From positions 69,973-133,972 of the forward strand of contig CAXFSR010000009.1 of NCBI GenBank assembly GCA_964005815.1: a DNA stretch of 64,000 nucleotides, written 5' to 3'. The DNA is from an uncultured Nitrospinaceae bacterium (GTDB taxonomy: Bacteria > UBA8248). Positions 9,272 through 60,800 of the stretch are shown one piece after another. Numbering within the stretch: position 1 is the first letter of the stretch; each line of letters opens with the position of its first letter. The notes below the pieces were generated by a model. The model was not told where the DNA came from and did no database searches. It saw nothing but the letters and a program-made list of their open reading frames with translations. Made by a program: the position numbers and the translations under genes.

Positions 9272-10324
9272 ATGAAGTTTTCAATCTTTTTCATCCCTTC
9301 TTGCGCTGAAGGAGAATCCTATCAAGACGAGTATGACAACCTAATGGAGCAGTGCGTGTTAGCCGATGAATTAGGTTTTGATGCTGCTTGGGTTGCTGAA
9401 CACCATTTTTCTAGAGTAGGAATGTGTCCAGATGCTCTTATGGTTGCCTTGGCAATAGCGCAGAAAACCAAAAAAATAAGGGTTGGTACGGCAATCAGTA
9501 TCGTTCCTTTTCACAATCCTATTCGTCTTGCAGAACAGGCAGCCTTAGTAGATGTTTTAAGTGGTGGTAGGCTTGATTTTGGTATTGGAAGAGGTTCTCA
9601 ACCCAAAGAATTTCAGGGTTTTAATATAGATCCTTCTGAGAGTCGAGAACGAATGCATGAGGGAATCGAAATTATGACTAGGCTTCTTGCTGGAGAGACG
9701 CTAACTTTTCACGGGAAGTATTACAGTTGTATTGACACAGCAATATATCCGAAACCAGTACAAGATCCTTTGCCAATTTGGATATCAGGTACTAGTCCTG
9801 AAACATATCAATATGCAGCTGAAAAGGGATTTTATGTTATGGCTTCCGCTGGTCATAAAGGGGCAGAACATTATCTTGAAAAAATACAATTATATAAAGA
9901 TGGTTTATTAGCGCAGGGAAAAGATCCCGAGGAATGCGAATATCTTTTAGCGCATAATATTCATGTTACAGATGATCCGGAATCAGCTTGGAAAGAAATT
10001 GAACCAGCAGAATCCTGGTATCTTAATTATAGGAGTGAGGTGAATTCAATTGAAATGCCAATTGAGCAGAAAGAATCTTTAAAGAGAAATATGAGTTATA
10101 AATTATCCATACGTGAGCAAATTGAAGGAGGAGGGGTTATAGGTCCTCCGGAGAAAGTAATAGAAGATATTGAGCGTTTAGAAAAAGATTTTAAAATAAA
10201 TCATGTGATGAATTTTTTGCTTAGAGGAATTAATCAACGTGATGCAATAAAATCTTTAGAAAGATTTGCTACAGAAGTAATCCCCCACTTTAAAAAGAAA
10301 GAAGTTAAAAGTTCTGCAAATTAA
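9272..10324 (+). CDS. Luciferase-like (LLM class) flavin-dependent oxidoreductase
   Basis: LGFDAAWVAEHHF, NPIRLAEQAALVDVLSGGRLDFGIGRG, YPKPVQ. Confidence 0.92.
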   Translation: MKFSIFFIPSCAEGESYQDEYDNLMEQCVLADELGFDAAWVAEHHFSRVGMCPDALMVALAIAQKTKKIRVGTAISIVPFHNPIRLAEQAALVDVLSGGRLDFGIGRGSQPKEFQGFNIDPSESRERMHEGIEIMTRLLAGETLTFHGKYYSCIDTAIYPKPVQDPLPIWISGTSPETYQYAAEKGFYVMASAGHKGAEHYLEKIQLYKDGLLAQGKDPEECEYLLAHNIHVTDDPESAWKEIEPAESWYLNYRSEVNSIEMPIEQKESLKRNMSYKLSIREQIEGGGVIGPPEKVIEDIERLEKDFKINHVMNFLLRGINQRDAIKSLERFATEVIPHFKKKEVKSSAN

Positions 10325-23416: not shown

Positions 23417-23502
23417 GCCCGGGTGGTGAAATGGTAGACACACAGGACTTAAAATCCTGCGAGGGCGACCTCGTGCCAGTTCGACTCTGGCTCCGGGCAC
23501 CA
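23417..23502 (+). tRNA. tRNA-Leu (anticodon TAA)
   Basis: Acceptor stem GCCCGGG/TCCGGGC plus ACCA. D-arm GGTGAAATGGTAGACAC. Anticodon arm CAGGA-CTTAAAA-TCCTG. Long variable arm CGAGGGCGACCTCG. T-arm GCCAG-TTCGACT-CTGGC. Confidence 0.97.
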
Positions 23503-32145: not shown

Positions 32146-32817
32146 TTAATTTTTTGATGAATCTGGCTGAGGGACAATTCGAATATAAGGTAGTGGAGTT
32201 TCCCATCCTTCGGGATACTTTTCTTTGGCTTCTTCATCGGAAACCGCTGGGAGAATAATAACATCATCTCCCTGTTGCCAGTTTACAGGTGTTGCAACTT
32301 GTTCTTTGGCAGTTAATTGACAGGAATCAAGAAGACGAAGGATTTCATGGAAATTTCTTCCTGTGCTCATTGGATAGGTTAACGTTGCTCTGACTTTTTT
32401 GTCTGGCCCTATCAGGAAAACTGAGCGTGCAGTTGCATTGTCAGTGGCAGTTCTTCCTTCTGAGGAATCTCCATCCTCTGTTGGTAGCATGTCAAAAGCT
32501 TTGACGATTTCTAGTCCCGGGTCTCCTACTAATGGATAACTCACTTCGTGACCCTGTGATTTTTCAATATCCTTAGACCATTTTTCGTGGTCAGATACTC
32601 CGTCCACACTAATACCTAGAATTTTGCAATTTCTTTTTTCGAACTCGTTTTTAAGTCCAGCCATAAAGCCTAACTCTGTAGTACAAACTGGGGTAAAATC
32701 TTTTGGATGAGAGAAAATAATTGCCCAACCTTCACCGATCCATTCATGAAAATCAATAGTCCCTTGTGTGGTTTCAGCAATAAAGTTTGGTGCTTCGTCA
32801 TTTATTCTTAAGGTCAT
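32146..32817 (-). CDS. 1-Cys peroxiredoxin (Prx6 family)
   Basis: FSHPKDFTPVCTTELG, YPMSTGRNF.EILR.LDS.QL, ATPVNW. ATG at 32817 follows AGAGGA. Confidence 0.93.
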   Translation of the reverse strand: MTLRINDEAPNFIAETTQGTIDFHEWIGEGWAIIFSHPKDFTPVCTTELGFMAGLKNEFEKRNCKILGISVDGVSDHEKWSKDIEKSQGHEVSYPLVGDPGLEIVKAFDMLPTEDGDSSEGRTATDNATARSVFLIGPDKKVRATLTYPMSTGRNFHEILRLLDSCQLTAKEQVATPVNWQQGDDVIILPAVSDEEAKEKYPEGWETPLPYIRIVPQPDSSKN

Positions 32818-32901
32818 TGTTGTCCTCTTCATAATTCAAAATAATTTATTTAAAAATGGTTATTAGTTTTTTTTTGCTAATAATTCCATTAGACTAATTT
32901 T

Positions 32902-34338
32902 ATGTCAATGAATACTAAATCATATATTCATTCAGCAGCCAATATTCTTGTTCATGTTCCTGAGTTGGTGCGTTTTGGATCTAAGTGCCATCGGGAAATT
33001 GAAGATTCAGGAAATGGGTTCCTGCAAAAATTGAATGAAAATCTCCGTAATTTTGAGGAAGTAGTTTCTTATCCACCAAATCAAACATTTATTGGCAATT
33101 TGAAACCGGAAAAGCTCCAAGAAAAATCGAAGCCTTGGTTTGAAAACCTTCTAAGTTCAGCAACTAGAGAAGGAGTTTTTGGTGAAATTATGGATCAATC
33201 GACCTTTTATATGCTTTTGAAATCTGCAGATGATTTCGATCTTTTTTTCTTGGATTCTTCTTTTATTAATTCAAACAATAATTCTAGCAATACTGCAAAG
33301 AAAATTTTTAGTGATAAGTTCTTAGAAAAAGGAAGTGAAATTGATGAAATTTTAAAAAATATAGATGTGAATAACTCATTGCCGATTGAGAATGATGGAA
33401 AAGTCATAGGTTGCTTTCGTTCGGATCACGACAAGGATGAGTCTTTAGATGCGAAAATTTTATTGGAAAATCTATCTGCAAAAGCAAGCGGTGCATTTGC
33501 CCTAAATCGTCTATTGATTCAAGAATCAATTGATCCATTGAATGTGGAATATATTATCAGTTGTTCAGAAGAGGCTATTGGTGATCGCTATAATCGAGGT
33601 GGAGGAAATCTGGCAAAAGCGATTGGAGAAATGGTAGGTTGCAAAAATGCGGCTGGAATGGATATCAAGGCTTTTTGCGCGGCACCAGTTTATGCACTTA
33701 TTCATGCTGCATCACTAATTCAATCTAAGGTCGTAAAAAATGTTGTGGTAGTAGGAGGTGGTTCTTTGGCCAAGTTAGGAATGAAGGCTCATTTTCATAT
33801 GGAGAAACAAATTCCTATACTTGAGGATTTGTTAGGTGGCGTAGCATTCTATTTGTCTTCTGATGGTTCTGATGGGACTCCTTATATTAATTTGGAAATT
33901 GTTGGCCATCATCGAATAGGAAGCGCTTCTTCGCCTCAAGAAATGGTTGAATCATTAGTCTATGGGCCTTTGGATAAAGCAAATCTGTCAGTATTCGATA
34001 TTGATAAATTTTGTGTCGAGCTTCATAATCCTGAGATAACTGTTCCAGCTGGTGCAGGCGATGTCCCTCTTGTTAACTATAAGACTATAGCAGCTCTTGC
34101 AGTTATGAAAAAGAAATTGGCAAAGGAAGAGATTGAAGATTTCATTCTTGAAAAAGGTATGCCAGGATTTTCTCCTACTCAGGGTCACATTCCTGCTGGT
34201 GTACCTTATCTAGGGTATGCTATTAAGGATCTGAGAGAAGGAATTCTTAAAAGGGCTATGGTTGTTGCAAAAGGAAGTCTGTTTCTTGGTCGCATGACGA
34301 GGAGTGCAGATGGAGTTTCTGTTGTTGTTCAAGTATAG
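32902..34338 (+). CDS. grdC: Glycine/sarcosine/betaine reductase component C, beta subunit (FabH-like)
   Basis: YPPNQTFIGN, LLENL..KASG, CSEEA.GD...RGGGNLAKA, FCAAP, ELHNPEIT.PAGAGDVP..NYK, GFSPTQGHIP, KGSLFLGRMT. Confidence 0.92.
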   Translation: MSMNTKSYIHSAANILVHVPELVRFGSKCHREIEDSGNGFLQKLNENLRNFEEVVSYPPNQTFIGNLKPEKLQEKSKPWFENLLSSATREGVFGEIMDQSTFYMLLKSADDFDLFFLDSSFINSNNNSSNTAKKIFSDKFLEKGSEIDEILKNIDVNNSLPIENDGKVIGCFRSDHDKDESLDAKILLENLSAKASGAFALNRLLIQESIDPLNVEYIISCSEEAIGDRYNRGGGNLAKAIGEMVGCKNAAGMDIKAFCAAPVYALIHAASLIQSKVVKNVVVVGGGSLAKLGMKAHFHMEKQIPILEDLLGGVAFYLSSDGSDGTPYINLEIVGHHRIGSASSPQEMVESLVYGPLDKANLSVFDIDKFCVELHNPEITVPAGAGDVPLVNYKTIAALAVMKKKLAKEEIEDFILEKGMPGFSPTQGHIPAGVPYLGYAIKDLREGILKRAMVVAKGSLFLGRMTRSADGVSVVVQV

Positions 34339-34363: not shown

Positions 34364-34816
34364 ATGGATGATCGCAAAGTTATTGTCCTTGGAGAAAGAG
34401 ACGGTATCCCTGGACCTACTATTGCTGAATGTCTTGAGGCTTCAGGAAGAGAAATAGTTTTTCAGAAAACAGAATGTTTTGTTTGAACTTCTGCGGGTGC
34501 AATGGATCTGGATAATCAGGCAACTATTAAAAAGCTTTCTGAAGAGTATGGTTCGGAGAATTTAATGGTTGTTTTGGGGATGCCAACTGACGGATTGAAA
34601 ATAGCGGTTGAAACTCTAACCAAAGGAGATCCAAGTTGGGCAGGGCCATTGGCGGGAGTCTCGTTGGGACTTCCAGTTTATCATGTTCTTGAAGAAGAGA
34701 TTAGGGATCTAATTCCGCCTGAAATCTACGAAGAAAAATTGAAAATGATGGAAATAGTTTTGGATTTAGAAGAAATTAAATCGAATTTGTCAGAGATGCG
34801 TGCAAGCAATTCTTAA
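34364..34816 (+). CDS. grdA: Glycine/sarcosine/betaine reductase selenoprotein A (Sec41 at TGA 34484-34486), 150 aa
   Basis: RBS AAAGGAGG and ATG at 34364. Translation MDDRKVIVLGERDGIPGPTIAECL...TECFV-U-TSAGAMDLDNQ runs in frame into track ORF 34502-34816 (ETLTKGDPSWAGPLAGV.LGL.VYH). Confidence 0.95.
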
Positions 34817-34837: not shown

Positions 34838-36115
34838 GTGCGTTTAGAAATGGGCTTGTTCCCTGTTGAAGATATTGTGGAAGGAGATGAGACTACCTTT
34901 TCTGATGGCTTGTTGACACTGAATTTTAAACAACTTCGGGATATGGCAATGGAGGAAGAAAAATTTGAAGATGTTAGTTTTCATATAGCTCTTCCAGGTG
35001 ACTCAGTTAGGATCACGAATGTATTAGATGCAGTTGAACCAATCCATAAGATAAATGGAAATTCATCCGAGTTTCCTGGTTTTTTAGGCCCAGCAAGAAC
35101 AGCAGGAGATGGTTTGACTCATAAACTTTCAGGGATGTGTGTCTTGAGTTCAACGTTCTTTTTAGGTCCTCAGACGGGCATTATGACTTGCCGTGAAGGT
35201 ATTATTGATATGTCAGGACCAGGCACAAAATTTTGTACCAACTCTGATACCTTGAATCTTGTAATTAGATTCCTCCCTCTTTCTAGTGCGACGAATATTG
35301 AGCATGATGATGCAGTCAGGCTTGTAACTCTTAAAATTTCTTCATGGCTTGCTAGTTTGACAAAAGATATGTCTCCAAAGGAAACAAAAGTATACGAACT
35401 AACAGATGTTGATCCTTCACTTCCCAAAGTTGTTTATGTAGATCAAGTAATGCATCAAGCTCCTATGGTGCAAACTTTTATGTATGGGAAAGATTTGGGA
35501 GATTCTCTTCCTACTCTTATCCATCCAAATGAAATGTTGGATGGAGCGGTCGTTGGGGGAAATTATAAAACTTCGCAGAAAGTTCCGACTTATCTCCATT
35601 GCAATAAGCCATTAATTCTTGAATTGTATAGTCGTCATGGAATAGACTTGAACTTTGTTGGAATGATTCTCACCAGAGGTCATAGAGATAATCAAGCTTT
35701 GAAAGAGCGGTCTGCTCAGTATGTTGCAAAGCTTGCAAAAATTCTTAAAGCAGATGGTGCAGTTTTATCATTTGAAGGCGGCGGAAATTCTTCTGTTGAT
35801 TATTGGTTAACTGTTCAGGCTCTAGAGCAAATGGATATTACAGCTGTTCCAATCATCTACGAAGTTGGAAGACCTGGAACTGATGAATTTCCTTTAGTTT
35901 ACCATGTTCCTGAGGCTAATTCGATCGTTAGTAAAGGCGCAAATGGAGATAAAGTTGACGCTCCTGCGATGGAAAAGGTAATTGGTTCAGAAAAAATATT
36001 TTTGTATGGTGGACAAGAATTTGACGCACGTGGAAATCTGAAAATAACTAACTCAGATTATTACGCAACGGAGTGGGCATTAGATATCAATGGTTTTGTT
36101 GGCAAGGATTTTTGA
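34838..36115 (+). CDS. grdE: Glycine/sarcosine/betaine reductase component B proprotein (GrdE/GrdG/GrdI-like)
   Basis: MRLE, PGDSVRI..VLD.VEP, FPG, EGIIDMSGPG, PTLIHPNEMLDGA, KERSA, ADGAV...EGGGN. Lies between grdA and grdB. Confidence 0.88.
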   Translation: MRLEMGLFPVEDIVEGDETTFSDGLLTLNFKQLRDMAMEEEKFEDVSFHIALPGDSVRITNVLDAVEPIHKINGNSSEFPGFLGPARTAGDGLTHKLSGMCVLSSTFFLGPQTGIMTCREGIIDMSGPGTKFCTNSDTLNLVIRFLPLSSATNIEHDDAVRLVTLKISSWLASLTKDMSPKETKVYELTDVDPSLPKVVYVDQVMHQAPMVQTFMYGKDLGDSLPTLIHPNEMLDGAVVGGNYKTSQKVPTYLHCNKPLILELYSRHGIDLNFVGMILTRGHRDNQALKERSAQYVAKLAKILKADGAVLSFEGGGNSSVDYWLTVQALEQMDITAVPIIYEVGRPGTDEFPLVYHVPEANSIVSKGANGDKVDAPAMEKVIGSEKIFLYGGQEFDARGNLKITNSDYYATEWALDINGFVGKDF

Positions 36116-36152: not shown

Positions 36153-37469
36153 ATGAGTGAAATTAAAATTGTACATTTCCTGAATCAATTCTTTTCTGGT
36201 TCTGGAGGTGAAGAGGTTGCAGATGAGCCCTTAAAATTTCATGATCAACCAATTGGTCCAGGAGTGCTGCTAGACAAAATACTCGGGAAAAATGGAAAGG
36301 TAATAGGTACGATTTCTTGTGGAGATAATTATTTTTTTAAAAATGAGAATTCTGTCTATGAAGAAATAAATAAATTTTTTAAGGCAAACTCTCCAGATCT
36401 CTTGATTGCAGGTCCTGCTTTTAATGCAGGTCGCTATGGACTTGCCTGTGCGAAGTTGTGCAAGGAAATTTCTTTGCAAAATGATTGCAAAGTTATTACT
36501 GGGATGTTTGAAGAAAATCCAGGAATTGATGCTGCCAAAGGAGATGTTCTTATAGTTCAAACTGGATCGTCAGCTGGCGATATGGAAAGTGCGTTAGATA
36601 AGATTGTTGAAATTGGTTTAAAACTGGTGTCAGGAGAAAAATTAAATTCTGCACAAGAAGAGGGATATTTCCCTTCAGGAGTTAGGTATAATATTCAGCT
36701 TGAAACTTCCGCTTCACCTAGAGCAGTTGACATGCTTCTTAAAAAAATAAAAGGAGTTCCTTTTGTATCAGAACTGATTGTCCCAGTTTTGGACAAAGTT
36801 GATCCTCCTGAACCTATTTCTGATTTAAAGAAAGCAGTTATCGCAATTGCATCTGAAGGAGGAATGGTTCCACCAGATAATCCTCACAAGATACCTGGTT
36901 CTAGAACTAATAAATGGGGGATGTATTCTTTTTCAGGAAAGAAGGAACTCGAACAGGATTCTTTTATTTCTATTCATGGTGGTTTTAATACGGTTTTTGT
37001 AAATGAAGACCCTGATCGCATTATTCCATTAGATGCACTCCGAATTTTTGAAGATAATGGAGAGATTGCTAAAGTATATGAGGATTTCTTTAGTACTTGC
37101 GGTAATGGGGGAGCTTTTGGACATATGCAAGAAATTGGACAGTCTTGGGCTAAAGAACTAAAGAATGGCGGAGTTGCTGGTGTGATTTTACCTGCAACCT
37201 GAGGCACAGGAACACGTAGCGGAGCTGCGTTAGCAAAAGAACTTGAAAGAGAAGATATTCCTACCGTACTTATCACATGTCTCCCAGATGTTGCAAAAGA
37301 TATAGGTGCGAATAGGATAGTAAATAATAAAGCTGGTCATTTTCACCACCCTTTTGGGGATCCAAGCATGACAAAGAAGGCCGAAGAAGCCTGGCGGTTA
37401 GGTGCAGTAAGGGTGGCACTTAAAGCGTTGCAAACTCCCGTAGAGGTCCCAACCGTTTTTGAATACTAA
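36153..37469 (+). CDS. grdB: Glycine/sarcosine/betaine reductase selenoprotein B (Sec350 at TGA 37200-37202), 438 aa
   Basis: VHFLNQFF..GGEE.A, CGDNYF, AGPAFNAGRYG, ENPG, HGG, EDPDR..PLD. Read-through gives PAT-U-GTGTRSGAALAKELEREDIP...IGANRIV...HPFGDP...ALKALQTPVEVPTVFEY up to TAA at 37467-37469. Confidence 0.95.
37203..37230 (+). promoter_or_regulatory. Candidate SECIS element of grdB
   Basis: 11-nt spacer after UGA, then a 7-bp stem ACGTAGC(37214-20)/GCTGCGT(37224-30) with a GGA apical loop. Confidence 0.7.
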
Positions 37470-37545: not shown

Positions 37546-38499
37546 ATGGTTCTAGATTATTTAGAATTAAGAAAAAGGACTCAGGATAGGGATAAGTCAC
37601 TTAGAGAGAAAGTGATGAGTTTGGAAGAAGCCTCAACACTTGTGTCTAATGGAGATCATATAGCACTTGGTGGTTCAACGGCGTCAAGAACATCATTTGC
37701 TCTTCTTTGGGCACTCATAAGAGCTAAGAAAAAAGATTTGACTTTTTCAAGAAGCATAGTTTCTACGGAAGGAGATCTGATTTTTGCTTCTGGAATAGGA
37801 AAAGAGATTCAAACTAGTTGGTTTAGTCAAGGAATTGTATGGGGTGTTTCAAGAGTAATGAGACATTTTACAGAAAATAATTTGGCGACCTATAGAGAAT
37901 GGAGTCATATGTCCATTGGGTTACGTTATAGGGCGGGGGCTATGGGAGTTCCATTTATGCCGATGAGATCAATGATGGGATCTGATGTTGCTGATCAACT
38001 AGAAAATCTGAAAGAGATTCCTTGTCCTTTTACAGGAGAAAAAATCTTATTGGTTCCCGCTCTAAACCCTGATGTTGCGCTTATACATGTACAACGATGT
38101 GATGCATTTGGGAATGCACAATTAGACGGATTGACTTTCATGGATCTAGATATGGCTATGGCCGCAAATCGTGTAATCATAACTACTGAACGAATCATTT
38201 CTAATGATAAAATAAGAAGATCTCCTGATTTGACGAAGATCCCTTTTTTCACTGTTGATGGTGTAGTTGAGGTCCCATATGGTTGTGTTCCTCATGAATG
38301 TTATGGGGTCTATGAACCCTTGTTTTCGCATATGGATTATTATGCCGATCTTACACGGAAAGACCCTATGGAAGGGGTTCAAGAATATCTGGAAAAATTT
38401 TATTACTCTCCAAAAAATTGGAATGAATACCTTGATTTAATTGGAATAGATGAAATTCTCGATGCAACTCAAAGAGGGAGAAGTATTTATGACGATTAA
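37546..38499 (+). CDS. CoA-transferase subunit A (glutaconate CoA-transferase GctA-like)
   Basis: KVMSLEEA, RYRAGAMGVPF, CPFTGE...VPALNPDVALIHVQRCD..GNA. Confidence 0.9.
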   Translation: MVLDYLELRKRTQDRDKSLREKVMSLEEASTLVSNGDHIALGGSTASRTSFALLWALIRAKKKDLTFSRSIVSTEGDLIFASGIGKEIQTSWFSQGIVWGVSRVMRHFTENNLATYREWSHMSIGLRYRAGAMGVPFMPMRSMMGSDVADQLENLKEIPCPFTGEKILLVPALNPDVALIHVQRCDAFGNAQLDGLTFMDLDMAMAANRVIITTERIISNDKIRRSPDLTKIPFFTVDGVVEVPYGCVPHECYGVYEPLFSHMDYYADLTRKDPMEGVQEYLEKFYYSPKNWNEYLDLIGIDEILDATQRGRSIYDD

Positions 38500-39259
38500 T
38501 TCTAATTCTTTTACCTCTTCAGAACTCCTCTGTATCATGAGTTCGCGTGCTTTAAAAGATGGCCAAGTGGTTTTTGCCGGTGTGGGTATTCCTTTATTGG
38601 CTGCTACACTTGCACAAAGATTGCACGCGCCTGGATTAACCATTCTCTTCGAAGGCGGAACTATAGGTCCACATATTGTTCCTGGAGAATTACCGCCGAC
38701 AACCAATGAGCAACGTTGTACTAGAAAAGCCAATATGTTGGTCAGTATTACGGAAGTTCTTCTCTTGTTGCAAAGAGGTTATGTAGATGTTGGATTTATG
38801 GGAGGAGCTCAAATAGACAAATATGGAAATTTAAATAGTTCTTTCATTGGAAGTGCTGATAATCCTTCAGTGAGATTACCCGGAACTGGGGGTGGAAATG
38901 ATATTGCAAGTCTTTCGAATATGATTGTTGCTATGCCACAAGAAAAACGTCGTTTTGTTGACAAAGTGGATTTTATAACAAGCCCTGGATACATTAGTGG
39001 TGGGAGCACTCGAAAGGATTCCGGTTTGATCTCTGGCGGAATGTACAGAATTGTCACAGATTTGGCGATTCTTGGGTTTGATGAAAGTGGAAGGATGCAG
39101 GTAGAAGCGTTACATCCTGATGTAACTGCAGAACAGGTAAAAGAAAATACAGGTTTTGAACTTGTGATTCCCGAGAATATACCAAGAACAGATACTCCAA
39201 CAGAAGAAGAGTTAAGTGCTCTAAGAATTTTAGATCCTGATAAAGTTTACACCGCTTAA
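38489..39259 (+). CDS. CoA-transferase subunit B (GctB-like)
   Basis: FAGVGIP, FEGG (catalytic Glu region), GGAQIDKYGNLN, RLPGTGGGNDIAS. Overlaps the subunit A stop. Confidence 0.9.
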   Translation: MTINSNSFTSSELLCIMSSRALKDGQVVFAGVGIPLLAATLAQRLHAPGLTILFEGGTIGPHIVPGELPPTTNEQRCTRKANMLVSITEVLLLLQRGYVDVGFMGGAQIDKYGNLNSSFIGSADNPSVRLPGTGGGNDIASLSNMIVAMPQEKRRFVDKVDFITSPGYISGGSTRKDSGLISGGMYRIVTDLAILGFDESGRMQVEALHPDVTAEQVKENTGFELVIPENIPRTDTPTEEELSALRILDPDKVYTA

Positions 39260-39273
39260 AATTCGGAGAAACA

Positions 39274-40545
39274 TTGGTGCAACAAGAAAAAGAGATTCTT
39301 TTAAAAGAAATAGAGAGTAGGTCGGAAGAAATAATAGATTTGCTTTCTGATTTGGTTAAGATTCCTAGTGTTACTGGGGAAGAGGGTGAGATCCAGAGAT
39401 ATATAGCAAAGTTTCTAAGTGAAATGGGTCTTGATGTTGATGTTTGGGAGTCAGACTGGGAGGAATTAAAAAAACATTCTGAGTATGTGCCTGTCACAAG
39501 GGGGTATGATGGAAGACCAAATGTTGTTGCAGTTTTAAAAGGAACAGGAGGTGGAAAATCTCTTCTACTTAATGGTCATACAGACACTGTCCCTAATGGT
39601 CCTCTAGATTCGTGGCAATTTGATCCACTTTCTGCAGAAATTTCAAATGGTCGCCTTTATGGAAGAGGTTCTTCCGATATGAAGAGCGGAGTTGCTGCAA
39701 TCATTATGGCAGTCAAAAGTATTATGGAATCTGGAAGAAAATTAAAGGGCGATGTTATTTTGGATTTTGTAGTTGATGAAGAATTAAGTGGTCATGGCAC
39801 ATTAGATACTATACTCAGAGGCTATACGGCTGATGCAGGAATTTGTTGTGAGACTAGTGAAAATGCGATTCAACCTGCATGTATCGGAAGAATATGGTTT
39901 GAAATTATAGTTCGAGGTAAAGCAGCAGGTATACAAAGAAGATATGAAGGTGTAAATGCTATTGACTTAGGTTATAAAATAGTAAAGGCAGTCTCAGCAC
40001 TTGAAGAAGATAGGTTGAAGACGATCGAGCATCCACTTTATCCAAAAGTAATTGATGCGATTCCCTGTATGATAGGTTCTATGGAAGCTGGAAGTTTTCC
40101 AAGTGCTTTTCCCGATACTTGTATATTGAAGGGAAGCTTAGCTACAGTTCCAGGAGAAGATCACAATGCTGCAAAACAAAGCTTAATTGATAAAGTTAAT
40201 ACTGTAGCATTTGAAGATTCTTGGATGAAGGAGAACCCTCCCGAGGTAGTCTTTACAGGCTATTATGCAGAATCTGCAGAAGTTGATGTTGAGCACCCAA
40301 TCGTAAAAACGGTTGCTAGTTGTTATCAAAAAGTCACTGGCAAAATTCCAGAAATTTCGGGAAGACAAGGTGCAGCTGATACGAGGTTTCTAAATGGTTT
40401 TGCAAATATTCCAACGGTCATTTTTGGGCCGGGTCCAACTACACAAATGCATGCAAATAACGAGTGGGTTTTGGTAGATGATGTGGTTGATGCGACTAAG
40501 ACACTAGCCCTTTCGATACTTGATTGGTGTGAATTGTCCATGTGA
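39274..40545 (+). CDS. M20 family ArgE/DapE-like deacylase
   Basis: LLNGHTDTVP, GRGSSDMKSG, VVDEE, CET, AADTR, FGPG...MH..NE. Confidence 0.9.
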   Translation: MVQQEKEILLKEIESRSEEIIDLLSDLVKIPSVTGEEGEIQRYIAKFLSEMGLDVDVWESDWEELKKHSEYVPVTRGYDGRPNVVAVLKGTGGGKSLLLNGHTDTVPNGPLDSWQFDPLSAEISNGRLYGRGSSDMKSGVAAIIMAVKSIMESGRKLKGDVILDFVVDEELSGHGTLDTILRGYTADAGICCETSENAIQPACIGRIWFEIIVRGKAAGIQRRYEGVNAIDLGYKIVKAVSALEEDRLKTIEHPLYPKVIDAIPCMIGSMEAGSFPSAFPDTCILKGSLATVPGEDHNAAKQSLIDKVNTVAFEDSWMKENPPEVVFTGYYAESAEVDVEHPIVKTVASCYQKVTGKIPEISGRQGAADTRFLNGFANIPTVIFGPGPTTQMHANNEWVLVDDVVDATKTLALSILDWCELSM

Positions 40546-40558
40546 TTTGGAGAAATTT

Positions 40559-41512
40559 ATGAAGAGTAATGTAAGATTTGGTATTGCTATGCGAAATTTT
40601 ACTGCATACCCAGAACTGCCTGATCCAAAGAAATTATTAGATTATGCTGTCAAAATGGAAGAATTCGAATTTGAATCTTTGTGGGTTTGGGACCATATAC
40701 TATTAGGTGTAGAACCACATTTCCCGATAATCGATTCATTAACATTATTAACTGCAGTTGCCGCGAAAACAACAAAGATTAAACTTGGCACAGGAGTTTT
40801 AGTTTTACCTCTTAGGAATCCTCTGGTTTTAGCGAAACAACTTGCAAGTATTGATCAGATTTCTGAAGGACGTTTAATAGTTGGAATGGCATCTGGTTGG
40901 TATAAGCGTGAATTTGATGCTGTAGGAGTTCCTTTTGAGAAAAGAGGAAATATTATGGATGAGAATATTGAGATAATTACTCGACTCTGGACTGAAGATA
41001 TGGTTTTAGGGGAATACGGTGATTATAATTTAAGAAACTCGGTGATGTTTCCAAAGCCAGTTCAGAAACCTAAGCCTCAAATTCTCATTGGAGGTTATGT
41101 TAATAGAGTTCTAAAAAGAGCTGGTGAAAAAGGAGATGGTTGGCTCACATATTTTTATACTCCGGATAGCTTTCTAAAGTCTTGGAAAAAAGTTTGTGAG
41201 TATGCTGAAAATGCTGGTAGGGACCCAACTATATTAGAAAGTACAAACCAACTTCCTATAGCTATTGGTGATTCGAGGTCAGAAATTTTTGGTCCAATGC
41301 AAGAATGGTTGAGGACTGAATGGGACTATGCCGATTGGAGTGATTCTACAGCTGAAAGCGCAATTATTGGGAATGTAGATGAATGTATTGAACAGATTCA
41401 AGAACATATCGAAACTGGCCTAGATCGTATCATTTTTGTCCCATATAAATATGATCTAAAACAGATTGAAGTAATTTCGAAAGAGATTATTCCTCAATTA
41501 GAACAAAAATAA
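40559..41512 (+). CDS. Luciferase-like (LLM class) oxidoreductase, possibly F420-dependent
   Basis: ESLWVWDH, LGTGVLVLPLRNP, GW...EFDAVGVPF..RG, PKPVQKP. Confidence 0.88.
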   Translation: MKSNVRFGIAMRNFTAYPELPDPKKLLDYAVKMEEFEFESLWVWDHILLGVEPHFPIIDSLTLLTAVAAKTTKIKLGTGVLVLPLRNPLVLAKQLASIDQISEGRLIVGMASGWYKREFDAVGVPFEKRGNIMDENIEIITRLWTEDMVLGEYGDYNLRNSVMFPKPVQKPKPQILIGGYVNRVLKRAGEKGDGWLTYFYTPDSFLKSWKKVCEYAENAGRDPTILESTNQLPIAIGDSRSEIFGPMQEWLRTEWDYADWSDSTAESAIIGNVDECIEQIQEHIETGLDRIIFVPYKYDLKQIEVISKEIIPQLEQK

Positions 41513-45115: not shown

Positions 45116-46072
45116 ATGGAGAATTTTCATTTTGGATATCTTCTTCCTACAAGAGGAGTCGTTGTATCTGCAAAAGGCGGTGCCCCTGATATGACTTCAA
45201 TAGTAACTTTAGCCCAAAAAGCTGAAAATCTTAATTTGGATTCTGTATGGTTAGGAGATAGTGTACTTGCAAAGCCGAGAATGGAAAGTTTTACAACGTG
45301 GGCTGCAGTTCTTGCATCAACAAAAAGAGTTCAGGTTGGTACTGCGGTATTACTTGCTGCTTTAAGACATCCAATTATGTTAGCTCAGTCATTGACAACT
45401 CTTGACTGTATGTTCTCTGGGAGAGTCCTTCCTGGTTTAGGAGTAGGCCGGGAAGATTTGAAAGATGAATTTGAGGCACTTGGGGTGAAAATTTCTGAAA
45501 GGGCAAAACGTTTTTCTGAAACTATTGAAATTGTGAAATTGTTAATGAGTGAAAGAAATTGTAATTTCTCTGGTAAACACTTTTCTTTTGAAAATGTAGA
45601 CCTAGAACCAAGACCTTTTAGTAAAGGAGGCCCACCGTTATGGATTGCTAGTAATTTTGTTCAATCCGGATTACGTCGTGTTGCCCGTTTAGCTGATGGA
45701 TGGATAACTAATTCAATTACTCCGGACATTTACCAGCAGTGTTGGAACGCCATACTAGAGTATGGTGAGGATTACGATAGAAAGAATCTAGAAGATATTC
45801 CTCAATGTCTTTACGTAACGATGAATATAAATCCAAATGGTGAAAAGGCGAAAAAAGAGGCTGGTGATTTTCTTTCAAAATATTATCATAAAACATTTGA
45901 CGAAATTCAAAAACAACTTCTCGTTATAGTCGGGGATGGAGATCAGGTTGAAGAAAAGCTTCGTTCCTACAGTGATATAGGTGCTTCTACGTTTATCATT
46001 CGTTTTGCAGGAGGAAGTCAAGTAGAGCAGATGGAAAATCTTGTGTCAGAACTTATACCTCGTTTTAAATAG
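45116..46072 (+). CDS. Luciferase-like (LLM class) flavin-dependent oxidoreductase
   Basis: DSVWLGDS, VGTAVLL..LRHP, GR...GLGVG, RVARLADGW. Confidence 0.88.
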   Translation: MENFHFGYLLPTRGVVVSAKGGAPDMTSIVTLAQKAENLNLDSVWLGDSVLAKPRMESFTTWAAVLASTKRVQVGTAVLLAALRHPIMLAQSLTTLDCMFSGRVLPGLGVGREDLKDEFEALGVKISERAKRFSETIEIVKLLMSERNCNFSGKHFSFENVDLEPRPFSKGGPPLWIASNFVQSGLRRVARLADGWITNSITPDIYQQCWNAILEYGEDYDRKNLEDIPQCLYVTMNINPNGEKAKKEAGDFLSKYYHKTFDEIQKQLLVIVGDGDQVEEKLRSYSDIGASTFIIRFAGGSQVEQMENLVSELIPRFK

Positions 46073-46087
46073 GGATGATAAAAGATT

Positions 46088-47272
46088 ATGGTTTTAGAAA
46101 ATGGAATTGGTGTTACAAAGGAAGAAATAAAATCTAGATTGGAAAAAACTCGTGTTTTAATGGAGAAGGAGAAAATAGAGTTTTTGATCGTAATTGGACG
46201 TTCCTTTTACGACAGAATGGGAAGTCTTGCGTACCTGACAAACCACTTCCCTCCGTTCCCTCCTGGCGCTTTTAGTCCTACAGTTCGGGGTATGGGGCAT
46301 GGTGTCTTATTGTTACCTTTAGATTCTAATCCCTTACTGTTAGTTGATCACAGAAATTTTCGAGAGGATATGGTTCACATCGATGATGTACAAGTAGAGA
46401 CAAATTTCTCTAAAGCTATTATTGATTATTTGGAACAAGGTCTTCAAAAAAAAAATGGGAGAGTTGGAATTGCTGGTGAAGATATAATGCCTGCAACCAT
46501 GTATATTGATCTAAAGCAAAACTTAGATAACGTTAATTTTGTAAACTCAAATTATATTGTAGAGCAATTGAGATCCGAAAAGACTCCAGTGGAAATCAAG
46601 TATCTTAGAAAAGCCGCAAAAATAACCGAATTTGCGTATAAAAGTATTTTTGCTGCAATCAAACCTGGAGTAAGGGAATGTGATCTTTGTGCGGAGGGAC
46701 ATGCTGCAGGCATGAAAGCCGGTGCAGATTTTGTTCGTTATGTGAGAGTTCACAGTGGTCCTTGGTCAAGTTGGGGTTCTCGTTGGCCACAAGCAACACA
46801 GAGAAAAATAGAGTCTGGCGATTTGATACGCTTTGATTATGTTGGCGCAGTAGAAGGATATGGTTTTGACGTTAATAGGACTTTTGTTGTGCCGGGAAAG
46901 AAGATTAATGCGAAAATTTCAAAAATGCTTGAATTAACGGTTGAAGTTTTACGAAGTGCAGTTTCTGCAGTTAAACCAGGAATTGCAGTTTCCGATATAC
47001 ATAAAAAAGCCAGTGAAAAACTTGATGAAGAGATTCCGGAAGGTAGCAAATATCTCTTTCCGATGGCTGGTCATGGAATAGGGTTGGAGACAGTAGAAAA
47101 TCCTATAATTCGTCCGGATAATGATGAGAAAGTAAAGAAAAACATGGTGCTTTGTATAGAACCTCAATTTGTGATTCCTGAAGTAGGTGGAACGAATATA
47201 GAACAGATGCTATTAATAACAGATACCGGCAATGAAATTCTTACGAATACTCCCGTAAGAACTTGGGAATAA
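46088..47272 (+). CDS. M24 family (Xaa-Pro aminopeptidase/creatinase-fold) protein
   Basis: Full metal-ligand set: D (RFDY), D (FDVNRT), H (GHGIG), E (IEP), E (IEQ). Confidence 0.88.
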   Translation: MVLENGIGVTKEEIKSRLEKTRVLMEKEKIEFLIVIGRSFYDRMGSLAYLTNHFPPFPPGAFSPTVRGMGHGVLLLPLDSNPLLLVDHRNFREDMVHIDDVQVETNFSKAIIDYLEQGLQKKNGRVGIAGEDIMPATMYIDLKQNLDNVNFVNSNYIVEQLRSEKTPVEIKYLRKAAKITEFAYKSIFAAIKPGVRECDLCAEGHAAGMKAGADFVRYVRVHSGPWSSWGSRWPQATQRKIESGDLIRFDYVGAVEGYGFDVNRTFVVPGKKINAKISKMLELTVEVLRSAVSAVKPGIAVSDIHKKASEKLDEEIPEGSKYLFPMAGHGIGLETVENPIIRPDNDEKVKKNMVLCIEPQFVIPEVGGTNIEQMLLITDTGNEILTNTPVRTWE

Positions 47273-50367: not shown

Positions 50368-51750
50368 ATGATTGGACAAAGTCTTCGAGATTTTCTGAAG
50401 ATGGTAGAGGAAGAATTTCCTGAAGAGTTTGTCCGAGTCACATTGCCAGTAAGTCGTGAAGACATTACTGCGACTGTTTTTGAACTCGAAAGTGTAGGGA
50501 AGAGTCCAGTTGTTTTTTTCGAAAATGTCAAAGGATTCAACTATCCTGTTGTTACTAATATAGCGGGGAACAGAAAACTTCTAGCTGCAAGCCTTAAAGT
50601 TAATCCATCTGAACTACCGACTACATTCAAAGATCGTTGTCAGGATTACAAGCCTGTAAAAGTTGAAAATGATCCTCCTTGGGAAGAAGTTTTTTTTGAA
50701 GGAGAGGATGTTGATCTGAATAATTTGCCGATCCCTCTTCATTTCGAAGTTGATGCAGCTCCGTATATAACAGCTGGACAAATTACTGCACGTGATCCTG
50801 AGACAGGTGTGGACACAACTGGCTTCCATCGACTAATGTTAAATGGAAAAAATAAACTTGGGGTGTCTCTTCATTCTAGACGAAGAATGTATCATTTTCA
50901 TAAAAAAGCTGAATCTCGAGGAGAGTCCTTACCAGCGGCTATTGCAATCGGTATTCATCCTATTCATTATATGGGATCTATGGCTTACCATTTTCCTCCT
51001 AATATTCGTAAGTATGAAGTTATCGGAGGTCTGTTTGGTGAGCCTTATAAAGTTTCGTCTTGTTCTACTAATAATTTGGAAGTTCCCTTTGGCGCAGAAA
51101 TTGTTTTAGAAGGTGAGATCTTGGCAGGTGTTAATGAACCTGAAGGGCCATTTGGCGAATTTACTGGGTATGCATCTTATAGGAGTACTCAAAACGTTTT
51201 TAATGTAAAAAAGGTACAGATGAGAAAAGACGCTATTTTCCATAGCATAGCTTCCGGTATGTCGGCAGACCATATTCTAATATCTTGTGTGAGTAGAGAA
51301 GCTGAAATTTTAAATTCTTTGCGTCGAAACCTTCCTAATGTGAAAAATGTTCACGTGCCGTCTGTAACCGCAGGAGCACTTCTGGCAATAGTTTCTATGG
51401 AAAAAACAGCAGAGGGGCAACCTCAGCAAGCAGTTATGGCAGCATTGGGAACGGAGTTTTATTGTAAATGTGTAGTAGTGGTTGATGATGATGTAGATAT
51501 TTTTAATTTGTCTGATGTAGCGTGGGCAATTATGACGCGAACACGTGCCGAAAAGGATATATTTTTTATACCTGGTGCGATGGGCGCAATTCTAGATCCC
51601 ACATCTGACCCTGAAAATCATACTCTAACTAAAGTAGGTATTGATGCTACAAAACCTAAAGGAAAAGATTTTGCAGAACGGTTGTTTGTATCCGAACAAC
51701 AAAAAGAACGTGTACGTGAAATATTACGTTCTTCCGGATTGCAAATTTAG
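50368..51750 (+). CDS. UbiD family (prenylated-FMN-dependent) decarboxylase
   Basis: LPIP...D.APYITAG, HRL, EIVLEG, EGPFGEFTGY, VVDDDVDIF, LDP, KVGIDAT. Confidence 0.93.
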   Translation: MIGQSLRDFLKMVEEEFPEEFVRVTLPVSREDITATVFELESVGKSPVVFFENVKGFNYPVVTNIAGNRKLLAASLKVNPSELPTTFKDRCQDYKPVKVENDPPWEEVFFEGEDVDLNNLPIPLHFEVDAAPYITAGQITARDPETGVDTTGFHRLMLNGKNKLGVSLHSRRRMYHFHKKAESRGESLPAAIAIGIHPIHYMGSMAYHFPPNIRKYEVIGGLFGEPYKVSSCSTNNLEVPFGAEIVLEGEILAGVNEPEGPFGEFTGYASYRSTQNVFNVKKVQMRKDAIFHSIASGMSADHILISCVSREAEILNSLRRNLPNVKNVHVPSVTAGALLAIVSMEKTAEGQPQQAVMAALGTEFYCKCVVVVDDDVDIFNLSDVAWAIMTRTRAEKDIFFIPGAMGAILDPTSDPENHTLTKVGIDATKPKGKDFAERLFVSEQQKERVREILRSSGLQI

Positions 51751-53314: not shown

Positions 53315-54640
53315 TTATTTTTCTTCTTGAGAAGAAATATATCCTGGGATTTTTATTGTACGAAATTCTTTTTCTAGAGAACCTAGAGGTGCAGTAGCAT
53401 CTAACCCCATTTTGGATGTGATGCCATTATTTGCGGATGGATCTAGTTTACTTCCCATAACTCCATCTATAACAAAAAGGTCTTTATGGGCTTGAAACCT
53501 TGTGGCAATAGCCCAATCTATTTCCTTTAAATCATGTATGTTGATGTCATGATCGACAACTGTTACATGTTTAATATCGTAATGAGAAGATAAGGCAGAC
53601 ATAAGTATATTCTTGACTTCTCCTTCATTGATTTTTTTGATTTGTACAAAACAGTGAAAACGACCCGAAGATGAAAGAGGCAATGATACATCTTGAACTG
53701 ATGGGTTATTTTTCCTCAAGTCATTTAATAAGGCTACTTCTCGAGGGATAGAACCCATTAGAAGATGATCAAATCCAGCAGGTAGGACAGAGTAATAAAT
53801 GGCATCTTCTCTCATAGATATAGAACGTATGTTTAAAACTTCTCTTTTGCCCGATGGGCCATAATATTTTGGAAACTCACCAAATGGACCTTCTTCATGT
53901 TTTTCATCGGGAAGAATTTCTCCTTCAATAACTATTTCTGAGTCAGTGGGGACGGCAATTCCTGACCAGGGTCCAGGGGTAAGAGATATCGGTTCTCCTC
54001 TGACAGCACATGCAATATTGATTTCATCTTCGTCTGGAGAAAGTACTAATTGACTTGCTAAAAGTAGGATTGGGTCTAACCCAATTGATACTGCAACTTT
54101 CAAAGATGATTTTTTATTTCGATTTAAAATTGATTTTAAGTGTCTTGGGAGGACGAGTAGTCCAAATTTGTTTTTGTCTATTACCTGCATGCGATGTATA
54201 GAAACATTCCTTATTCCAGTTTCTGGGTCATGTACAAAAAAAACACCTGCTGTTATATATGGCCCTGCATCATATTCATGGTAAGTTGGAATAGGAAGAG
54301 TACCCGTAATGTTAATTTCCTCAGTTGTTTTTTCTAAAAATTTAGCATCCGTTTCTAATTTGGGTTCTATTTTTTTTTGTTGTTTTTCTATCAATTCTTT
54401 CAAGAGATCTCGGGAATTTAAACCTAGTTTTTCCGAATACCATTCTCTATTACAGAGTATATTTGATATGATAGGCACATCAGGTCCGTCAGTATTTCGA
54501 AAAAAAACTGCACTTTGCCCATCAAACTTTTTAGAAATTGCAGCAACTTCCCATTGAAGTTTTACTTTTTTTTCTATCTTTTCGAATCTTTCTTTGTCTT
54601 TTAACGAATTTATCCAACTTCTTAATCCAAATTCAGACAT
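53315..54640 (-). CDS. UbiD family decarboxylase (second paralogue)
   Basis: LPIPT..E.DAGPYITAG, SIHRMQ, EGPFGEFPKYYG, VVDHDI, GSKLDPS, KMGLDAT. Confidence 0.92.
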   Translation of the reverse strand: MSEFGLRSWINSLKDKERFEKIEKKVKLQWEVAAISKKFDGQSAVFFRNTDGPDVPIISNILCNREWYSEKLGLNSRDLLKELIEKQQKKIEPKLETDAKFLEKTTEEINITGTLPIPTYHEYDAGPYITAGVFFVHDPETGIRNVSIHRMQVIDKNKFGLLVLPRHLKSILNRNKKSSLKVAVSIGLDPILLLASQLVLSPDEDEINIACAVRGEPISLTPGPWSGIAVPTDSEIVIEGEILPDEKHEEGPFGEFPKYYGPSGKREVLNIRSISMREDAIYYSVLPAGFDHLLMGSIPREVALLNDLRKNNPSVQDVSLPLSSSGRFHCFVQIKKINEGEVKNILMSALSSHYDIKHVTVVDHDINIHDLKEIDWAIATRFQAHKDLFVIDGVMGSKLDPSANNGITSKMGLDATAPLGSLEKEFRTIKIPGYISSQEEK

Positions 54641-59657: not shown

Positions 59658-60800
59658 GTGAATTTTACAGAAAAAGAGGGCGTTAGAAGACACAAAAAAT
59701 TAAGAGAAAATATGGCAGAAGCAAATATTGATGTTCTGGTAGTTTATGGAAATAATGGAAGGATGGGAATTTATTCCGGTAATCTTGCGTATGTAAGTAA
59801 CTTTATTTCTTTTTCTGGCCAACAAGCACTAGTGTTTCCATTAGAAGGAGAGCCTGTGCTTTTTGTTGGTGTAGAAAATCAAAGAATTGAAGCAATTAGG
59901 AAAAGTTGGATTAAAGATACGCGTTGTGAAGCTATGACATCAGTAACTATGCAAGTATGTGATTATTTGAACGAAATAGGGGTAGAAGGGAAAAGAGTTG
60001 GGGTTTCCTCATTTTCAATTATGCCCGTTTCTTGGTACGAACAATTTCAACAGAACCTCTCGCCACAAGAATGGGTAGATGCAAGTGAAATGGTATGGAA
60101 AGAACGTTTAATTCAAAGTGATGAAGAAATTGCAATGTCAAAACATTCCGCTAAGCTTGGCGATGCAGCATGGAATCGTATCAGGGAATGTGCACAAGAA
60201 GGTATATCTGAACTAGAGATTCGTGCAGAAATGGACGCAGTCATGTTGCCAGGGGCAGGTACCGAAAATTTCAATATGATGGGTCTTGGAAGTATGGCGA
60301 ATGGAGGAGAAGCTCCATGGGGCTATGTTATTCCTCAAACTGACAGAAAAATGGAAAAAGGAGATGCTGTACTATTAGAGATTTCACCTAGAGTGAACGG
60401 TTACTGGAATCAGTTAGTGAGAGTTCTGTGTCTTGGTCAACCTGAGAGTTGGTTAACTGAGGCATATGACCTTGTTCGTCGCGCAAGAGATGCAACTTTG
60501 GAAGTGCTCGGACCAGATAAACCAATGATTGGATTGGTGGATGCTATGAATAAAGTATTTGCTGATAGCGGACGTGAAGTGTGGCCTTATGGTTTGGTCC
60601 ATTTGACAGGACTCGATTTGACTGATTATATGATTACACCAAAATCAACAGGGACATTAAAACCGAATCAGATAGTAACTGTTCATCCTATGTATCAACT
60701 AAGTCCAAATAGACAAATTTTCTGGGGTGAAAGTTATGTGATTACAGAAGATGGTTTTGAACCTATTAATACTAGTTCGGACAAACTAGAGGTTAAATAA
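59658..60800 (+). CDS. M24/creatinase-fold protein with altered metal ligands
   Basis: Creatinase-like N-domain, SDEEIA, GISELEI, GD.VLLE...NGYW.Q..R, H.TGLD, TVHP, GES..ITEDG. Confidence 0.8.
   Translation: MNFTEKEGVRRHKKLRENMAEANIDVLVVYGNNGRMGIYSGNLAYVSNFISFSGQQALVFPLEGEPVLFVGVENQRIEAIRKSWIKDTRCEAMTSVTMQVCDYLNEIGVEGKRVGVSSFSIMPVSWYEQFQQNLSPQEWVDASEMVWKERLIQSDEEIAMSKHSAKLGDAAWNRIRECAQEGISELEIRAEMDAVMLPGAGTENFNMMGLGSMANGGEAPWGYVIPQTDRKMEKGDAVLLEISPRVNGYWNQLVRVLCLGQPESWLTEAYDLVRRARDATLEVLGPDKPMIGLVDAMNKVFADSGREVWPYGLVHLTGLDLTDYMITPKSTGTLKPNQIVTVHPMYQLSPNRQIFWGESYVITEDGFEPINTSSDKLEVK

Follow-up and report, generated by a model that had tools for sequence, protein, structure and literature searches.

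A four-gene Grd-type selenoprotein module of an uncultured Nitrospinaceae bacterium with tyrosine in place of the pyruvoyl-forming cysteine

The closest described relatives of the locus studied here are the glycine reductase GrdE/GrdB of Clostridioides difficile, Acetoanaerobium sticklandii and Peptoclostridium acidaminophilum, the betaine reductase GrdI/GrdH, described from Eubacterium acidaminophilum, the fluoroacetate system FarE/FarB of Cloacibacillus and, more distantly, the D-proline reductase PrdA/PrdB. Textbooks treat the Grd-type enzymes as strictly anaerobic Stickland enzymes that combine a UxxCxxC motif, a carbonyl cofactor and the formation of acetyl phosphate. They are treated in the same way in passages of a 2026 review of prokaryotic selenoproteins (PMC13188914). 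In this work we analyzed a 64,000-nucleotide stretch of DNA (the window) from contig CAXFSR010000009.1 of an uncultured Nitrospinaceae bacterium, which carries at 34838–36115 (+ strand) the gene of an E-type subunit, here called E', next to the genes of a selenoprotein B (B'), selenoprotein A (grdA) and component C subunit beta (grdC-beta). The residue of E' at the position of the pyruvoyl-forming cysteine is a tyrosine.

In C. difficile GrdE the peptide of residues 242–266 carries a pyruvoyl group derived from this cysteine, as stated in a passage of PMC9908766. The cysteine-less relatives GrdI and FarE are described as non-proproteins in passages of PMC10838667; hence the loss of the cysteine in an E subunit is already in print for these two proteins and is not new.

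The E' gene begins with a GTG codon and forms an intact frame of 425 aa followed by a stop codon. Its product is a full-length member of the Pfam family PF09338 (Gly_reductase; 373 bits, cut-off 22.2), which alignments and trees place in a clade with a short loop of the type GN[YF][KR]. In-frame reading of positions 35540–35599 gives D-G-A-V-V-G-G-N-Y-K and so on, with the codon TAT at 35564–35566 (+) encoding Tyr243; this agrees with an earlier reading made from the letters alone (the sequence-only reading), whose quoted peptide, EMLDGAVVGGNYKTSQKVPTYLH, occurs in E' as given. In every alignment made, Tyr243 shares its column with Cys242 of C. difficile GrdE (SGN-C-VSACDK), and the corresponding cysteine of Cloacibacillus GrdE and the T-C site of C. 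difficile PrdA fall into the same column. As reference sequences, C. difficile GrdE was taken from L043, Cloacibacillus GrdE from L097 and C. difficile PrdA, which exceeds the TIGR04480 cut-off, from L150; these loci are either named or verified with models.

The dipeptide Asn242-Tyr243 was found in all 118 rows of an alignment of E' with 117 homologues of 40–94% identity, a set made of the best 120 database homologues minus three of 380 aa or less, plus E' itself. Copies of E' on two further contigs (L155 and L159) are 100% identical to it, and a contig from an RNA library that spans 35486–35778 (0 other letters) covers codon 243 with no difference listed there. Tyr243 is genuine, and not the product of chance or of a sequencing error, because Asn-Tyr is kept in 118 of 118 rows. 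Elsewhere in the short-loop clade, Phe (P0130, P0133, L189) or His (P0137) can also take this place, so the hydroxyl group of Tyr243 appears to be dispensable. It should be mentioned that the close homologues P0010, P0032 and P0116 are named "beta-aspartyl-peptidase" in public records, which looks like a misannotation of the short-loop PF09338 clade.

Across these 118 rows the E' loop has no conserved Ser, Cys or Thr: position 245 is Thr in 54, Asn in 44 and Ser in 17 of them, Ser occurs at position 246 in 11, and Cys255 is present in 83. The second cysteine of GrdE, four residues further on in N-C-V-S-A-C, has no counterpart in E', where the loop is shorter (NYKTSQK), and no cysteine occurs there in the clade. 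The sequence-only reading had allowed for another Cys or Ser at the cleavage site, and the alignment has none that is conserved. Its view that the subunit is not pyruvoyl-dependent is soundly based, given that tyrosine cannot carry out the N-to-S/O acyl shift, that no conserved Ser or Cys lies nearby and that GrdI and FarE set a precedent. Because pyruvoyl formation needs a Ser or Cys nucleophile, which Tyr cannot supply, E' is, judging from this chemistry and these precedents, almost certainly without a pyruvoyl group.

In the AlphaFold2 model of E' (75-row alignment; mean pLDDT 94.8, pTM 0.93) Tyr243 is the first residue past the strand 238–242 and opens a loop that ends at the helix 251–255. 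No solved relative was found by sequence with E', a canonical GrdE-type profile or the N-terminal 349 aa of B' as queries; the sole structure match, a Mediator subunit at E = 0.009, was dismissed as chance. A Foldseek search of the E' model against the PDB gave nothing at E ≤ 0.001 (TM ≤ 0.19), and a wide VIA-align search returned only generic alpha/beta matches (Z about 8) to residues 191–423, which are uninformative.

To which subfamily E' belongs was assessed with the named NCBIfam models. E' remains under all of their cut-offs, with 257 against 780 for GrdG (NF040793), 137 against 675 for FarE (NF053623) and 41 against 700 for PrdA (TIGR04480). The name "GrdE proprotein" given in the sequence-only reading has thus to be abandoned: E' is far below every named subfamily cut-off and lies in a clade of its own, and it is neither a GrdE nor an orthologue of the cysteine-less GrdI or FarE. 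A true GrdI for comparison was obtained through a search for GrdH in five named genomes. GrdH of Alkalithermobacter paradoxus (L093) reached 832.7 bits, over the cut-off of 775 (NF040795), as a positive control, and the PF09338 gene just upstream of it, which reads SGS-F-MPCSSK at the site, is taken to be GrdI because it adjoins a GrdH over cut-off. As a second positive control, Cloacibacillus FarE (L096), with WRYW at the site, scored 761.5 against 675.

A profile-free search of 1.84 billion cluster representatives revealed 1056 relatives at E ≤ 0.001. Over 150 aligned rows, made of the best matches of at least 370 aa plus seven from the first search and therefore biased to the E' side of the family, the cysteine column contains Tyr in 72 rows, Phe in 17, His in 8 and Cys in just 8. 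Among 110 proteins scanned, only eight reach E ≤ 1e-120 against the GrdG model, none of them its cut-off, and all eight carry the cysteine.

Two trees, one made with FastTree from 160 rows and one with IQ-TREE (LG+C20, quick search) from 52 rows, agree with each other. In the latter, E' lies inside the short-loop clade GN[YF][KR]xxx[KR] (SH-aLRT 99), which is nested in a large cysteine-less radiation (SH-aLRT 99) with FarE on another of its branches. The radiation is sister to the GrdI clade (SH-aLRT 100), from which E' is excluded. When the tree is rooted with PrdA, the cysteine-bearing GrdE and GrdG rows are basal, and the topology would fit a single loss of the cysteine before the split of GrdI and the cysteine-less radiation.

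Some other members of the family are built differently. The proteins P0167, P0221 and P0244 have 774–798 aa, about twice the usual length, and P0125 and P0184 have 534–546 aa with an N-terminal extension of about 110 aa; these over-long members may be fusions, perhaps of E with B. Four Grd-like loci of the same phylum (L140–L143) contain an E subunit of a different clade with the motif W-x-G-F-[CS]-R-P, where a Cys or Ser stands one residue after the aromatic one. It is paired with a B subunit that keeps UGTCTRCG and, as far as its motif goes, might still be self-processing. Neither grdA nor grdC was found near L141 and L142.

The gene of the partner selenoprotein B' is located at 36153–37469 (+) and encodes 438 aa when the in-frame TGA at 37200–37202 is read as selenocysteine (Sec350). 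B' is a member of the GrdB family (PF07355, 417 bits; TIGR01918 for selenoprotein B in general, 433 against a cut-off of 65) and falls below the specific cut-offs for GrdF (NF040794, 447 against 800), GrdH (NF040795, 404 against 775) and GrdB (TIGR01917, 389 against 602.2). Its selenocysteine motif, LPATUGTGTRSGAA, has lost both cysteines of UxxCxxC, and the serine of STUG is replaced by Ala. The comparison motifs are TSTUGTCTRCGA in canonical GrdB, GrdH and one GrdF-like protein and TSTUGTSSRCGA in FarB. According to a passage of the paper on the Far system, the STUG serine is the other candidate site of a protein-derived carbonyl (PMC10838667). Both candidate carbonyl sites are thus absent from the module, as the pyruvoyl cysteine is Tyr and the STUG serine is Ala.

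In total, 65 E/B pairs could be read from 18 loci of the same phylum, 80 metagenome loci (many of which were too short) and six reference loci; these rows are related to one another and give a pattern, not a statistical test. In each of the 37 pairs whose E' is of the short-loop [NT][YF] type the B subunit reads U..G..S, an arrangement found in no pair of any other E type. The pattern U..C..C was found in all three GrdE pairs and both GrdI pairs, and U..G..C in the 11 pairs of a clade with the motif GEYHWA. B' diverges from the motifs published for GrdB and GrdF as well (PMC9751293): where GrdB reads AHGGYDP and STVGNGT, and GrdH reads IHAGFDP and TTVGTGT, B' has IHGGFNT and STCGNGGAF. The GrdB motifs AHGGxD[QTAP] and TxGNxTxV given in a passage of PMC9751293 are not found in B', which reads IHGGFNT and TCGNGGAF. 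In a simple fold of the 60 nt after each UGA, made with a view to a SECIS element, a hairpin of -8.4 kcal/mol formed for B' and a weaker one of -6.9 kcal/mol for grdA; these raw values are not counted as evidence.

Two peculiarities of the arrangement of the pair in other loci were observed. In several related genomes (L130:11089–12868, L134:7752–8974 and L160:5730–6949) an insert of 2–3 kb separates the E' and B' genes; it carries a PIN-domain gene with a small partner and looks like a toxin-antitoxin cassette, the rest of the operon being intact. Two metagenome contigs (L170 and L172) contain tandem E'-B' pairs, with SGNYKNLQK/PATUGTGTRSG and GGNYKIGTR/VATUGSGTRSG, followed by a single grdA and a single grdC and flanked by several TctC receptor genes. 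This layout resembles that of clostridia, in which several substrate-specific B proteins share one A and one C.

The two remaining genes of the unit precede E' on the same strand. The grdC-beta-like gene (32902–34338, +) encodes a 478 aa protein of the Thiolase/FabH-like type (NF040746, 612 bits, cut-off 450; PF19364; PF08545) with Cys259 in DIKAFCAAP. Its identity to the canonical GrdC proteins from C. difficile, A. paradoxus and Cloacibacillus is 42–47%, and it retains the cysteine, TQGHI and ELHNPE. The grdA gene (34364–34816, +) encodes selenoprotein A of 150 aa, with an in-frame TGA at 34484–34486 read as selenocysteine and an intact CxxU in the motif CFVUTSAG (NF040748, 207 bits against 130; PF04723, 206 bits). 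The conserved unit, linked across phyla, consists of grdC-beta, grdA (Sec), E' and B' (Sec). Within the phylum its order is C-A-E-B, and grdC-beta stands beside grdA, E' and B' in 16 of the 18 loci, the exceptions being loci of the L139, L141 and L142 type. In metagenome contigs of other lineages we found the orders E-B-A-C, E-B-C-A and E-B-E-B-A-C.

A gene for GrdD was missing from this unit and from the phylum genomes searched. In a profile search, none of the 51 phylum genomes, 37 of which carry an E-like gene, contained GrdD over cut-off, and the best match in the genome of the window itself (97% complete) was 18.5 bits against a cut-off of 350. The same model gave 564–614 bits in all three canonical genomes used as a control. 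A tblastn search with C. difficile GrdD found no homologue in the 80 metagenome loci, many of them short. Three losses are linked to that of the cysteine, namely CxxC in B', the STUG serine in B' and GrdD, none of which was part of the sequence-only reading.

The genome contains the equipment for decoding selenocysteine, with SelD (338 bits), SelB (402 bits) and SelA (568 bits) over their cut-offs and one tRNA-Sec. It also encodes TrxB (355 bits, over cut-off) and the haem-copper oxidase subunit I (COX1); neither trxA nor trxB adjoins the operon. Since these genes were found, selenocysteine decoding and thioredoxin as reductant should be available, and oxygen respiration should be possible. 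The selD gene of the genome (G000:C49:38431–39390, - strand; locus L235) has one in-frame TGA, and SelD itself is, by its sequence, probably a selenoprotein.

A comparison with the described systems revealed similarities and differences with each of them. E'/B' resemble betaine reductase GrdI/GrdH in the combination of PF09338 and PF07355, in the lack of a pyruvoyl cysteine, in the aromatic residue at the site, in selenocysteine in B and in the GrdA partner. They differ from it in that GrdI has SGSF and a longer loop with insertions, GrdH keeps STUGTCTRCG, and the A. paradoxus reference genome has GrdD (614 bits), which the E' lineage does not. The Cloacibacillus pair, too, is similar: passages of PMC10838667 describe FarE as lacking the processing cysteines and not being a proprotein, and FarB has partly lost CxxC (UGTSSRCG). 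As is proposed below for E', the substrate of Far needs no Schiff base, and according to the same passages Far is thought to feed GrdA and protein C (PMC10838667). E', however, lies on a different branch of the tree, and the Far host has GrdD (564 bits). The radical-SAM gene and the major facilitator superfamily (MFS) antiporter of the far operon, mentioned in a passage of PMC10838667, are both absent from the annotated genes around the E' module.

Glycine reductase GrdE/GrdB is homologous to E'/B' (E' is about 35% identical to C. difficile GrdE), has GrdA and GrdC-beta as partners and carries selenocysteine at the same position of B; it is distinguished by Cys242 in place of Tyr243, the second cysteine, CxxC, GrdD and adjacent trxA/trxB, all of which are absent in the module. 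The D-proline reductase PrdA/PrdB is a distant homologue that served as the outgroup. PrdA has its T-C processing cysteine in the Tyr243 column and, unlike E', is about 630 aa long, of a different architecture and pyruvoyl-dependent.

Taken together, we consider it reasonably probable that E' is an unprocessed, non-pyruvoyl substrate-binding subunit of a distinct Grd-type selenocysteine reductase acting on an alpha-substituted acetate that needs no Schiff base. Substrates bound as a Schiff base, such as glycine and sarcosine, would be unlikely because neither of the proposed carbonyl sites remains. The parts that handle glycine have all been lost, so the enzyme probably cleaves some other small acid.

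The following mechanism, all steps of which are derived by homology to GrdHI and FarEB, can be proposed. E'B' would bind X-CH2-COO-, the leaving group X of which has no need of a Schiff base; Tyr243, on the loop that bears the pyruvoyl group in GrdE, would probably serve as an aromatic wall of the pocket, like Phe in GrdI. Sec350 of B' would attack C-alpha, with departure of X and formation of a carboxymethyl selenoether, and the carboxymethyl group would then move to the selenocysteine of GrdA. The FabH-like Cys259 of GrdC-beta would take the group as an acetyl thioester. Since the lineage is without GrdD, the PlsX-like subunit that forms acetyl phosphate, the acetyl group would probably leave as acetyl-CoA or acetate and not as acetyl phosphate. 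Oxidised GrdA would be re-reduced by the thioredoxin system of the genome.

As to the nature of X, the sequence-only reading had proposed a cationic substrate (a quaternary ammonium or sulfonium compound), in favor of which is the aromatic residue found at the site in both proteins, Phe in GrdI and Tyr in E'. Against betaine proper are the score of B' below the GrdH cut-off, the differing motifs of B' and the lack of a betaine-carrier family in the neighbor annotations. A cationic, betaine-like X is conceivable though somewhat doubtful; an anionic or neutral X (a halide, a sulfonate and the like) can be put forward tentatively, and something else altogether just as tentatively.

Several points weigh against the interpretation of E'/B' as a reductase of this kind. 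The invariant Asn242 may allow cleavage of the backbone by Asn cyclisation, which yields no carbonyl. A suggestion of Andreesen (2004), cited in a passage of PMC9908766, is that the pyruvoyl group of GrdE keeps GrdB active and does not serve in glycine binding; because its role is disputed, the absence of the group would not strictly exclude amine substrates. In FarB, whose substrate is fluoroacetate, one cysteine of the pair and the STUG serine are retained, so that the complete loss in B' is without characterised precedent. Weak PlsX-like matches of 25–35 bits exist in the genomes, and an unrelated enzyme could replace GrdD. The PrdA root branch is very long (5.28), which makes the direction of the cysteine loss uncertain, the counts across relatives are not independent of one another, and the neighbor genes differ between loci and offer no firm indication of the substrate.

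Other explanations of the module were weighed against the same data. It is unlikely that E'/B' constitute a true betaine reductase, that is, a divergent marine form with the function of GrdI/GrdH that converts betaine to trimethylamine and an acetyl unit. The sister relationship of the cysteine-less radiation to the GrdI clade, the aromatic residue in both, the recurrence of the window DNA in marine metagenome runs and the abundance of betaine as a marine osmolyte (passages of PMC9321204) would agree with it. However, B' scores 404 against the GrdH cut-off of 775, below even its own GrdF score (447); where GrdH reads STUGTCTRCG, IHAGFDP and TTVGTGT, B' reads ATUGTGTRSG, IHGGFNT and STCGNGG. 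Moreover, the reference GrdI clade (SH-aLRT 100) excludes E', the loop insertions of GrdI are absent from E', and TctC, TRAP and IclR recur among the neighbors in place of a betaine-carrier family. The absence of three chemical hallmarks (the pyruvoyl cysteine, CxxC and GrdD), together with the peroxiredoxin gene lying divergently upstream in the window's own genus, could also mean that the module is not an acetate-forming reductase and is instead a redox or selenium/sulfur-transfer system on the Grd scaffold, or that E' is a catalytically silent structural partner. This we judge to be quite improbable: GrdA and GrdC-beta are over their equivalog cut-offs, the FabH-like cysteine, the CxxU of GrdA and the selenocysteine of B' are all kept, and the linkage of the four genes across phyla fits a carboxymethyl relay, whereas the peroxiredoxin is a neighbor in one genus only.

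In copper amine oxidases the precursor of topaquinone likewise lies in an Asn-Tyr dipeptide. E' might still use a protein-derived carbonyl on an amine such as glycine or sarcosine, made in another way, for example as a quinone derived from Tyr243 in this oxygen-respiring host, or formed from some other residue. The invariance of Asn242 and Tyr243 in 118 of 118 close rows and the haem-copper oxidase of the genome are in line with this idea, which nevertheless appears very improbable to us, as the site is Phe or His in some members of the short-loop clade, residues from which a quinone cannot arise, the E' loop lacks a conserved Ser, Cys or Thr and the STUG serine of the partner is Ala. A quinone derived from Tyr was rejected as the principal interpretation on account of these Phe and His residues. 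Finally, a sequencing error or a decaying GrdE pseudogene has next to no probability. The frame of 425 aa is intact, Asn-Tyr is found in 118 of 118 rows, identical copies are present on L155 and L159, the model has a pLDDT of 94.8 and the partner genes are intact; conservation had already refuted this explanation, and nothing was found in its favor.

Contigs from four RNA libraries of one metatranscriptomic study contain pieces of grdA, E' and B' with at least 99% identity, one of them spanning from grdA into E'. They give a weak hint that the module is transcribed, although carry-over of DNA into the RNA libraries could explain the contigs. The grdC gene (about 32988–33975) is uncovered in all four runs, which is uninformative as only contigs are concerned. 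Searching the whole window with Rfam revealed no riboswitch near the operon; the sole match was a tRNA gene at 23417–23499 (+; RF00005, 55.5 bits).

Directly next to the module the window contains a gene for a peroxiredoxin of the 1-Cys Prx type (32146–32832, - strand; PF00578, PF10417), divergent from grdC, and, directly downstream, two overlapping genes for subunits of a family-I CoA-transferase (37546–38499 and 38450–39259, +; PF01144, 82 and 94 bits), which are possibly co-transcribed with the module. The peroxiredoxin adjoins the module in L137, L155, L156, L157 and L159 and in no other relatives. The CoA-transferases adjoin it in L155, L158 and L159 only and are absent from this place in the 18 phylum loci, although the closest of these, L137, reaches the end of its contig soon after B'. 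Both were rejected as parts of the system, being neighbors only within the window's own genus.

The surroundings of the module were surveyed by gene clustering in 28 loci and by Pfam annotation. The recurrent neighbors are either restricted to one family of the phylum (MmgE/PrpD, SDR, multicopper oxidase) or generic (TctC, IclR, TRAP). TctC receptors occur in three lineages with up to four copies per locus, and a TRAP DctQM pair and IclR or LysR regulators recur as well; these transporters and regulators point weakly to an anionic carboxylate. Among the annotated neighbor genes of the module loci there was no family named as a betaine carrier. A sulfonate substrate, considered on the basis of a TauE-like gene beside a paralogous cluster (L133/L144), was dropped because this gene is found in one lineage only.

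The rest of the window is rich in catabolic families. It includes genes for luciferase-like oxidoreductases (9272–10324, 40520–41512 and 45116–46072), UbiD-type decarboxylases (50368–51750 and 53315–54640) and creatinase/prolidase-like M24 proteins (46088–47272 and 59658–60800), along with MmgE/PrpD, two acyl-CoA dehydrogenases, a molybdopterin hydroxylase, a fused TRAP transporter and an SBP_bac_5 binding-protein gene. This is the gene set of a heterotroph.

In our literature searches, which did not extend to supplements such as the full GrdBE tree (Fig. S6 of PMC9751293), no description of a GrdD-less, CxxC-less clade of the Tyr type was found, and the combination does not appear in passages of the 2026 selenoprotein review (PMC13188914). 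What appears to be new is the combination of a short-loop Asn-Tyr E' with a B' devoid of CxxC and of the STUG serine and with the lack of GrdD, in aerobes and anaerobes of several phyla. The E-like gene is present in 37 of the 51 phylum genomes, and homologues are also named from Chloroflexi, Dehalococcoidia, Burkholderiales and Desulfobaccales. Of the features by which Grd-type enzymes are commonly described, the short-loop clade drops all three, UxxCxxC, the carbonyl cofactor and the formation of acetyl phosphate, and the host studied here has a haem-copper oxidase.

Public annotation lists members of the clade under "glycine/sarcosine/betaine reductase". Because they are lumped together in this way, surveys that count grdH/grdI homologues as a potential for converting betaine to trimethylamine would miscount the clade. 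Once known, the substrate would define a new reaction class of selenoproteins and reveal the purpose that the pyruvoyl group and CxxC serve in the classical enzymes. More speculatively, and we think this rather unlikely, a bare-selenocysteine enzyme that is common among oxygen-respiring bacteria of ocean and soil may cleave the bond between carbon and a heteroatom in a small acid of high abundance (a betaine-, sulfonium-, halo- or sulfo-acetate). Such an enzyme would do without a carbonyl cofactor, without guarding cysteines and without passing through acetyl phosphate, and a FabH-like GrdC would hand the C2 unit directly to CoA. If this were true, it would represent a new aerobic route from such compounds to acetyl-CoA, and trimethylamine, dimethyl sulfide, halide or sulfite in oxic water might in part stem from this new source.

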